From: a virus
Lineage: Duplodnaviria; Heunggongvirae; Uroviricota; Caudoviricetes
Reading direction: 5' to 3' (one strand)
DNA: 64,000 nucleotides
IMG/VR virus record: IMGVR_UViG_3300042554_002438
The position numbers were made by a program, and so were the translations under genes. Shown here in pieces: positions 59,872 to 59,992 of the stretch (position 1 is its first letter; every line of letters starts with the position of its first letter). The notes beneath the pieces were generated by a model. It ran no database searches, was not told where the DNA came from, and saw nothing but the letters and a program-made list of their open reading frames with translations.

Positions 59872-59992
59872 GCCCAGAGCTGGATTCGAACCAGCGCCTT
59901 TTTTTTCCATAAAAAATTGTTAGATAGTGATTTGCTGAAATCATCCACACTGGATGACTCTTTTTTTAATGCTACCGCTACACCATCTGGGC
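59872..59992 (-). ncRNA. atypical 121-nt tRNA-like RNA (acceptor, D-arm and T-arm, with the anticodon arm replaced by an A-rich hairpin insert)
   Basis: GCCCAGA/TCTGGGC acceptor, GTAGCGGTAGCA D-arm, GCTGG-TTCGAAT-CCAGC T-arm; about 70 nt between D- and T-arm containing a TCATCCA-GTG-TGGATGA hairpin and A-runs. Confidence 0.35.

Follow-up and report, generated by a model that had tools for sequence, protein, structure and literature searches.

What is the role of an RNA that has the ends and the body of a tRNA and carries a fifth arm in addition? The question is raised by a minus-strand element at positions 59871-59992 of a 64,000-nucleotide (nt) stretch of Caudoviricetes phage DNA (IMG/VR record IMGVR_UViG_3300042554_002438), which is referred to here as the window and in which the element lies within a tRNA array. 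It was described in a first-pass annotation, made from the letters of the stretch, as an atypical tRNA-like RNA whose anticodon arm is replaced by an A-rich hairpin insert; the atypical, tRNA-like character is borne out by the sequence and by a covariance-model match to a family. The element is a real and conserved non-coding RNA gene and not a product of chance. It has a five-armed structure, belongs to a family and shares a module with other RNAs, and the gene for a protein of predicted Ro60 fold is linked to its relatives. With moderate confidence, and by analogy, we read it as a non-permuted Y-like RNA of tRNA topology, the partner of a phage Ro-like protein, which would act in tRNA surveillance, in repair or as a decoy.

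Structure of the element

Read on the minus strand from 59992 to 59871, the element is GCCCAGA UG GUGU-AGCGGUA-GCAU U AAAAAAAGAG UCAUCCA-GUG-UGGAUGA UUUCAGCAA AUCACUAUCUAACAA UUUUU-UAUGGAA-AAAAA AGGC GCUGG-UUCGAAU-CCAGC UCUGGGC U. Its parts are given below with the evidence for each, where R1 is the covariance model (CM) of the family and MFE denotes the minimum free energy fold.

59871-59992, minus strand: the whole RNA, Y-like and tRNA-shaped, of 122 nt with discriminator U73 counted; CCA is not encoded (sequence and R1)
59986-59992, minus strand: 5' strand of the acceptor stem, GCCCAGA, 7/7 pairs with 59872-59878 (family: 7/7 pairs covary, 100% of cells paired)
59969-59983, minus strand: D-arm GUGU-AGCGGUA-GCAU, with canonical U8, A14, GG and A21
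59958-59968, minus strand: A-rich linker UAAAAAAAGAG, 3' of the D-arm, which opens the inserted fifth arm (all family members have such a linker)
59941-59957, minus strand: insert hairpin UCAUCCA-GUG-UGGAUGA (MFE fold; family: 7/7 pairs with double changes, ~90% of cells paired)
59932-59940, minus strand: conserved single-stranded motif UUUCAGCAA, directly 3' of the insert hairpin, putative contact of a Ro-like protein
59917-59931, minus strand: linker 2 (AUCACUAUCUAACAA), variable across the family
59900-59916, minus strand: anticodon-like arm UUUUU-UAUGGAA-AAAAA, degenerate, with A33 (U77-U81 with A89-A93; CM alignment)
59896-59899, minus strand: variable region AGGC (sequence)
59879-59895, minus strand: T-arm GCUGG-UUCGAAU-CCAGC (sequence; family T-stem 100% paired in the CM alignment, 4/5 pairs covary)
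59871-59878, minus strand: 3' strand of the acceptor stem, UCUGGGC (59872-59878), and discriminator U (59871) (sequence)

As had been stated in the first-pass annotation, the acceptor helix GCCCAGA/TCTGGGC is perfect (59992-59986 pairs 7/7 with 59878-59872), and the D-arm-like sequence, the canonical T-arm and the 7-bp hairpin are all found, the D-arm being fully canonical by sequence. The D-stem consists of the pairs G10·U24, U11-A23, G12-C22 and U13·G21 around the loop AGCGGUA; the family consensus for the arm is (G/A)UGUAAYGGUAGCAY, in which the 10:25 pair covaries between GC, AU and GU. Of the "A-rich hairpin insert", the hairpin stands, but it is not itself A-rich; the A-runs flank it. 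The extra ~50 nt of the element are inserted behind the D-arm and ahead of an anticodon-like hairpin, which is weak (U5/A5), at tRNA positions 26/27. The anticodon arm has therefore not been replaced and an anticodon stem is not missing, contrary to the earlier description: a hairpin exists at 59916-59900 and aligns with the anticodon-like arm of the family. The distance to the upstream tRNA-Asn had been given as 4 nt, which agrees with the Rfam coordinates (3 nt by those of ARAGORN), and tRNA-Asp begins 6 nt downstream of the discriminator.

Some further pairings were considered and set aside. The MFE fold contains an 8-bp pairing of CACUAUCU, in linker 2, with nt 5-12, which is absent in relatives outside the clade and was taken to be clade-specific or due to chance. 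The register of a local hairpin around UUCAGCAA (UGAUU/AAUCA) varies in relatives, and an "upper stem" like that of the circularly permuted forms described below, formed by the A-rich linker with linker 2, could not be established in the non-permuted set.

A family of five-armed RNAs

Relatives were collected with a DNA pattern that requires a D-loop, the motif TTCMGCAA and a T-loop in this order. It matched 23 viral and 53 metagenomic stretches, and 63 of the 97 matches counted across all collected loci (overlapping starts included) had in-register acceptor strands with 7/7 pairs, 46 of them being unique. A first, looser pattern (TTCAGCAAATC...GGTTCRA) had given mostly chance matches, and its loci were reused as a control set. 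The layout common to the family is a cloverleaf with an extra arm between the D-arm and an anticodon-like arm of 5 bp with a 7-nt loop; in the extra arm, an A-rich linker leads to a hairpin, whose sequence varies, and then to UUC(A/C)GCAA.

The structure is supported by covariation. In alignment A3, which comprises 29 sequences with the clade of the window left out, 90.6% of the cells are paired, compared with 64% on shuffling (0/500 as high) and 36-50% with slid partners, and double changes occur in 7/7 acceptor pairs and in 7/7 pairs of the insert hairpin. When 61 distinct members from phages and metagenomes were re-aligned to R1, the model built on A3, 94.6% of the cells were paired and covariation was seen in all five helices; the anticodon-like arm was 83% paired, with covariation in 5/5 pairs. 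UUC(A/C)GCAA does not vary within alignments A2 and A3, but this motif was part of the search pattern; among R1 matches that are independent of the pattern, the variants AGUCAGCAA, GUGCAGCAU and AUACAGCAG occur.

R1, in which the window's clade has no part, matched 59871-59992 (minus strand) over its full length (model positions 1-122/122; 86.5 bits, E 6e-18), while the 27 ordinary tRNAs of the window score at most 36 bits. With the Rfam tRNA model (RF00005), the element scores 20.3 bits (E 0.17; gathering score 29), and it is not called in the ARAGORN tRNA list of the window. The counterpart in the related phage contig L001 is 97.6% identical, the flanking tRNAs there being 75-99% identical.

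Apart from this sub-threshold tRNA match, the element has no family match in Rfam 15 at E up to 10, and within that limit it has none to YrlA (RF02553). Searches of the phage record collection for close relatives by megablast and blastn gave tRNA-sized matches only, and a concatenated query of 10 family members gave no match there at E 1e-8. Matches in the genome collection were rejected, being either chance or a different element of Solirubrobacterales. The literature was searched on DUF2828, Ro-like phage RNAs, permuted Y RNAs and decoy tRNA-like RNAs, and the family was not found described. It is new to Rfam 15 and to the searched literature, and the nearest known kind is YrlA.

Members were also recognized in cultured phages. 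Citrobacter phage Ci1 (OR515478) has two non-permuted members in tandem, at 13867-13981 and 13988-14101, which sit 0.5-0.6 kb downstream of a Ro-like gene; one of them is annotated only as "tRNA-Pseudo-AAC". Aeromonas phage LAh_6 has one unannotated member near its Ro-like gene (9503-9619). In the Felix O1-like Escherichia phage VpaE1, module-bearing units lie in a gap of the tRNA array at ~8270-8450, near the Ro-like gene, and consist of AGACCAA-A-UUCAGCAA...UUGGUCU plus a UUUACAGCAA variant.

Another layout was observed in two contigs, L182 (3024-3148) and L157 (2747-2872). These tRNA-like RNAs have a class II-type D-arm, and an A-rich linker, a hairpin and GUUCAGCA(A/U) take the place of the loop within an intact anticodon stem; they pass the Rfam tRNA model at 36-47 bits. 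In contig L128, a tRNA array of a related phage that carries a family member also holds a suppressor-type tRNA called by ARAGORN (3602-3678; anticodon UUA, reading the UAA stop).

The module shared with circularly permuted RNAs

The arrangement "stem, then UUC(A/C)GCAA" is also the terminal module of circularly permuted RNAs, which were found at 120 or more viral loci. From one end to the other, these RNAs run through the 5' strand of the stem, the motif, an anticodon-like hairpin, a T-arm, a loop-closed acceptor hairpin, a D-arm and the 3' strand of the stem, which is the topology of YrlA. At 14 permuted-form loci, no YrlA match reached the Rfam gathering score (69). A non-permuted member (at least 75 bits) is also present in at least 20 of 100 permuted-form loci. 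In the window, three RNAs with the module follow one another within 420 nt, the two others lying within 400 nt of the element.

59649-59791, minus strand: circularly permuted YrlA-like RNA (Rfam YrlA 45.9 bits, gathering score 69; fold z-score -3.4)
59580-59641, minus strand: minimal 62-nt stem-bulge-stem module RNA (sequence, exact motif copy, outer stem in the MFE fold)

The permuted RNA has the outer stem AAAUAAAACA/UGUUUUAUUU and the inner stem AGGAUGC/GCAUCCU, followed by AUUCCGCAAAUU; its further parts are the hairpin AGG-AUGUCAA-CCU, which is anticodon-like, the T- and D-arms and an acceptor hairpin that is closed. On comparison with the L001 copy, the T-stem and the acceptor-like hairpin were found to covary. 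The minimal RNA is built as GGGUUGA / G-UUCAGCAA bulge / AUCUU ... AAGAU / UCAACCC and contains, at 59622-59632, a second exact copy of UUCAGCAAAUC. Its apex is an anticodon-loop-like hairpin, UCAGA-CUUGUAAA-UCCGA, the apical loop being CUGCAAA in L001, and it is reminiscent of YrlB, a small Y RNA without a tRNA domain.

The first-pass annotation had placed the element in one family with a 152-nt and a 90-nt element. The kinship with the former, to which the YrlA match of 45.9 bits belongs, is upheld, since both have a stem followed by UUC(A/C)GCAAAU; the latter is probably the RNA at 58920-58829, which lacks the module, and the true third module RNA is that at 59641-59580. The odd RNA at 58829-58920 (minus strand) is a 92-nt tRNA-like RNA whose acceptor stem is weak and contains G·U pairs. 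Its D-stem has 5 bp, and a long arm, GGCCCU...AGGGCU, encloses a CUUC/GAAG hairpin; it has no UUCAGCAA module and scores 24 bits with R1.

Chromosomes of Solirubrobacterales metagenome-assembled genomes (L144-L146, L149, L150 and L152; e.g. L152 879-992) carry a different conserved bacterial element. There, a hairpin holds UUCAGCAA in its loop (GGC-UUCAGCAA-GCC), and next come an anticodon-like hairpin (CUGAUAA) and a T-arm. These 8-kb loci contain no Ro-like gene.

A Ro60-fold gene beside the relatives

When the open reading frames (ORFs) of the loci were clustered, the dominant neighbour was a protein of ~470-560 amino acids (aa) with the Pfam domains DUF2828 and DUF7788. Its gene was present at 12 of the 62 loci with non-permuted RNAs and at 34 of the 120 with permuted ones, whereas the 116 control viral loci (~1 Mb) had none. 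It is co-oriented with the RNA in 49 of 49 cases, often at less than 350 nt, the minimum being 36 nt (L135). An AlphaFold model of this DUF2828–vWA protein (predicted local distance difference test, pLDDT, 83; predicted template modelling score, pTM, 0.82) was compared with known structures by Foldseek, and the full-length matches were to Ro60 structures only, including the Ro60 of Thermus phage phiLo (top 10: E 1e-9 to 6e-7, template modelling (TM) score 0.57-0.61). By tblastn, the protein was found in 711 phage records, which include KVP40, Felix O1-like, Listeria, Staphylococcus and Campylobacter phages and mycobacteriophages; "RNA-binding protein" and "Ro-like RNA binding protein" are among its GenBank annotations. 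A 531-aa neighbour just beyond the window was considered as a Ro-like candidate and rejected, as it has phosphoesterase-like motifs instead.

In the known Ro60/Y RNA systems, the RNA gene lies within 4 kb of the Ro60 gene on the same strand (PMC4201824), and a Y RNA is designed as a stem with a conserved bulge in its 5' strand (10.1101/312249; PMC12135203). The linkage to the DUF2828 gene and the layout of the module thus parallel the Ro60/Y RNA arrangement.

Anticodon-like loop and tRNA-type ends

The 7-nt loops of 61 family members are tRNA-like, with U33 in 55, A37 in 56 and A38 in 56, and most relatives have canonical loops such as CUGUAAA, CUGUCAC or CUGUUAA. The triplets at the anticodon position are GUA (13), GUC (11), GUU (6), CAU (6), GUG (4) and others. 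The triplet flips among near-identical members, as between GUA and GUG or, in permuted forms, within CUGNAAA, and ordinary tRNAs with the same anticodon occur in the same arrays as family members. Where the window has UAUGGAA, its near-identical relatives L001 and L304 have AUGGACA; in an alternative register, the window arm would have a 4-bp stem and the anticodon AUG.

CCA is encoded in 47 of 66 members. Neighbouring tRNAs encode it in 96% of cases where the member does and in 56% where it does not; the window clade is without CCA, like most tRNAs of the window (4/27 positive in a loose check), and the phage encodes its own CCA-adding enzyme. Since the anticodons are redundant and flip, the window loop is poor and the ends are of tRNA type, the family is probably one of tRNA mimics whose tRNA-type ends are genuine. 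Decoding by the window copy is unlikely, though some relatives may have such a role.

The annotation had named a short intron, yielding a normal tRNA on splicing, as the finding that would speak against its view. Deletion of nt 26-76 does give a 72-nt cloverleaf; it does not give a normal tRNA, as the loop is non-canonical (A33) and differs in near-identical relatives. Introns at 37/38, the usual site in tRNAs, or at 26/27 were tried by hand and rejected, no canonical anticodon loop being produced. For the ~50-nt insert at 26/27, there was no Rfam intron match (E up to 10), and no bulge-helix-bulge was seen on inspection of sequence and fold. The insert, which is the most conserved and module-like part of the family, looks like a functional arm rather than an intron.

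Genome context

The phage genome has ~35% G+C, and all 27 tRNA genes and the transfer-messenger RNA (tmRNA) gene of the window are on the minus strand. Contigs with the same genes reach 298.7 kb, which makes this a jumbo phage.

42681-60404, minus strand: 27 tRNA genes for 19 amino acids, no tRNA-Ala in the window
53317-53695, minus strand: tmRNA gene (78.8 bits)
27811-29193 (minus), 34366-35460 (minus), 38522-40606 (plus), 43683-44525 (minus) and 62990-63457 (minus): tRNA/RNA-repair gene loci

The repair set comprises an RNA ligase that bears a PHA02142 OB-fold domain, the nucleotidyltransferase RlaP, a fusion of a CCA-adding enzyme with 2H-phosphoesterase-like and HAD domains, a Thg1-like tRNA-His guanylyltransferase and a PF04308 RNaseH-like protein. 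A metallophosphatase gene lies ~3 kb past the end of the window (contig L323); PF04308 and metallophosphatase genes recur beside the Ro-like gene in other phages. The same contig encodes, ~5.6-8 kb past the right end of the window, a homologue of ribosomal protein S21 (2460-2699) and a 557-aa leucine-rich-repeat protein of the same phage (2734-4407).

A further weak tRNA-like signal was noted at 42837-42905 (25.8 bits). Within the tRNA array, the stretches 58290-58830 and 59120-59495 are rich in G+C (~46% vs 35% for the genome); neither contains an ORF on the minus strand that reaches 80 aa, Rfam gives no match, and they may hold further structured RNAs. Upstream of tRNA-Phe, the first tRNA of the block, a sigma-70-like promoter (TTGACT-16-TATATT, 61064-61037, minus strand) is followed by a strong terminator-like hairpin (60911-60881), and the region 60881-61064 may be a start or attenuation point for transcription of the array.

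Proposed function and alternatives

In the mechanism that we propose, the element would be matured like a tRNA by RNase P and 3'-end enzymes, and CCA would be added by the phage CCA-adding enzyme, as is suggested by the spacing of the array and the CCA pattern. The fifth arm would dock the phage Ro60-fold protein (DUF2828–vWA), a step that is proposed on the analogy with Ro60 and Y RNA and on the gene linkage in relatives. The tRNA body would show a tRNA look-alike to tRNA-handling proteins; it may tether or gate the Ro-like protein, or serve as a decoy or sensor for tRNA-directed nucleases. Any of these roles would suit the tRNA-repair set of the phage (RNA ligase, RlaP, Thg1-like enzyme and the fused CCA-adding/2H/HAD protein).

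Several observations weigh against this reading. Searches with hidden Markov models (HMMs) for a Ro-like or DUF2828 gene were negative for the 64-kb window and the 10 kb flanking it on each side (together ~84 of 299 kb) and for contig L001. The Ro-like gene is present in only 20-28% of the fetched family loci, which are just 5-14 kb long. UUCAGCAA is not the canonical Ro60-binding motif GNCGAAN0-1G of YrlA (PMC4201824), and it is by analogy that we infer Ro-like binding. The D-loop, the motif and the T-loop were fixed by the search patterns, which accounts in part for their lack of variation in the first sets; the R1 matches relax this constraint. The discriminator, moreover, tracks the triplet as the identity rules of tRNAs demand (GUU with G73 in 6/6, GUC with G73 in 9/11, GUA with A73 in 13/13), and this match would also fit tRNAs that can be aminoacylated.

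A rival view is that the element is a working decoding tRNA, either with the extra arm kept, as class II tRNAs keep a long variable arm, or with a ~50-nt intron at 26/27 removed by phage enzymes. The 72-nt cloverleaf left on removal of nt 26-76, the tRNA-like family loops (U33 in 55/61, A37 in 56/61), the correlation of discriminator and anticodon, the CCA encoded by many members, the RNA ligase, RlaP, Thg1-like and CCA-adding enzymes of the phage and the lack of a tRNA-Ala in the window all speak for it. Alanine, however, is specified by the identity pair G3:U70, and the acceptor stem has C3:G70. The window loop has A33 on a stem of five A-U pairs and reads AUGGACA in near-identical relatives; anticodons duplicate those of normal tRNAs in the same arrays, and a Tyr/His flip occurs inside one clade with the body unchanged. 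The element scores below the gathering score for tRNA (20.3 < 29), and its conserved insert recurs as the terminal module of permuted RNAs, which cannot be tRNAs. The intron version also meets the difficulty that the insert is too short for a group I intron, matches no Rfam intron and shows no bulge-helix-bulge on inspection. We regard a decoding tRNA as unlikely. We think it just as improbable that the RNA works on its own, with no need of a Ro-like protein, as a decoy or sponge whose tRNA body and anticodon-like loop would take up host enzymes, either defence nucleases that target tRNAs or enzymes that modify them. Such a decoy would agree with loops that mimic specific tRNAs (GUN, the queuosine-modified Tyr/His/Asn/Asp type, in 34/61), with anticodon positions that change fast among close relatives, with the anticodon-loop-like tip of the minimal module RNA, with the tRNA-repair context and with the lack of a Ro-like gene near the window copy (window and 10 kb on each side). 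It leaves unexplained the invariant arm of hairpin and UUCAGCAA and its strict linkage to, and co-orientation with, the Ro60-fold gene, and the window loop, with A33 and an all-A/U stem, is a poor mimic.

The first-pass annotation had suggested "top-half" RNAs made of acceptor and T-arm, which lack an anticodon arm and so escape anticodon nucleases. The window copy has no convincing anticodon loop, and the phage is rich in tRNAs and repair enzymes; yet the family keeps an anticodon-like arm, and the canonical loops of most relatives would make them targets or decoys rather than safe from such nucleases. An RNA without an anticodon could not replace a cleaved tRNA, so that resistance alone brings no benefit, and the insert appears, by analogy, to be a conserved module of protein-binding type. 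This idea is very improbable. Hardly any weight is given to a decaying tRNA pseudogene, or to hairpins and A/T runs that are merely terminators for antisense (plus-strand) transcription. One relative is indeed annotated as a pseudo-tRNA in GenBank, and on the plus strand both hairpins precede T-runs and score as terminator-like. The 97.6% identity to L001, however, equals that of the best-kept tRNAs, compensatory changes are found in five helices across 61 sequences, and there is no plus-strand gene upstream.

In this family, a module of protein-binding type is attached to a full tRNA whose ends are free and which has an anticodon-like loop, and permuted forms are present alongside in one phage. 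Relatives of both topologies are present in hundreds of viral contigs, and members are currently overlooked or labelled as pseudo-tRNAs, as in Citrobacter phage Ci1. The Ro-like gene occurs in well-studied phages, which would offer tractable systems for the study of tRNA mimicry by Ro ribonucleoproteins (RNPs) in repair or anti-defence. A wider proposal is conceivable, though we hold it as doubtful. A second Y RNA topology would be widespread in phages, in the form of complete, CCA-ended, possibly chargeable tRNAs with a Ro-binding fifth arm that are interconvertible by circular permutation with YrlA-like forms; their anticodon loops, which are tRNA-specific and change fast, would bait host nucleases or modifying enzymes, and the Ro-like RNP would sense or sequester tRNA damage or channel it to phage repair. 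If true, the bait-loop Ro-like RNP would be a new anti-defence mechanism and would give a handle on the purpose of the tRNA-like domain of Y RNAs.

Comparison with known systems

The closest likeness is to YrlA (RF02553; Chen et al. 2014, PMC4201824; 10.1101/312249). Both have a tRNA-like D/T elbow with conserved sequences and a modular design, a tRNA mimic being attached to a stem whose 5' strand has a conserved bulge; both occur in phages and are associated with RNA-repair genes. At the level of the family, the gene adjoins a same-strand Ro60-fold gene, as in YrlA, no such gene having been found for the window copy in the window or the 10 kb beyond either end. The two differ in topology: in YrlA, the Ro-binding stem is made by the two ends of the RNA, 5' and 3', and the acceptor stem-loop is closed, whereas the element has an open 7-bp acceptor with tRNA-type ends, a module arm closed by GUG and, apart from this, an anticodon-like arm. 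UUC(A/C)GCAA (UUUCAGCAA) stands as the motif in place of the YrlA 5'-strand GNCGAAN0-1G (PMC4201824), and the partner suggested by gene linkage is DUF2828–vWA and not the Pfam TROVE Ro60.

With canonical tRNAs (RF00005), the element shares the 7-bp acceptor, D- and T-arms with U8, A14, G18G19 and UUCRANY, the discriminator, the placement and spacing in the polycistronic array, and CCA encoding as in neighbouring tRNAs. It differs in its length of 122 nt, with ~50 nt that split the D-arm from the anticodon-like arm, in a window loop without U33 and in an anticodon that varies among near-identical relatives; unlike that of class II tRNAs, its extra arm is at 26/27 and not at 44-48. Like tmRNA and viral tRNA-like structures (TLS) such as that of turnip yellow mosaic virus (TYMV), it is a tRNA mimic of the kind whose free acceptor end is recognised by tRNA enzymes, but it has no tag reading frame or pseudoknots and carries a full D-arm and an extra Y-like arm.

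A further parallel is found in the permuted tRNAs of the red alga Cyanidioschyzon merolae, in which a permuted precursor is converted via a bulge-helix-bulge to a circle and then to a normal tRNA. In both cases one RNA design appears in two permutations, with an open or a loop-closed acceptor. In the phages, however, there is no bulge-helix-bulge; the two forms coexist as separate genes, and a conserved module of protein-binding type lies at the junction.

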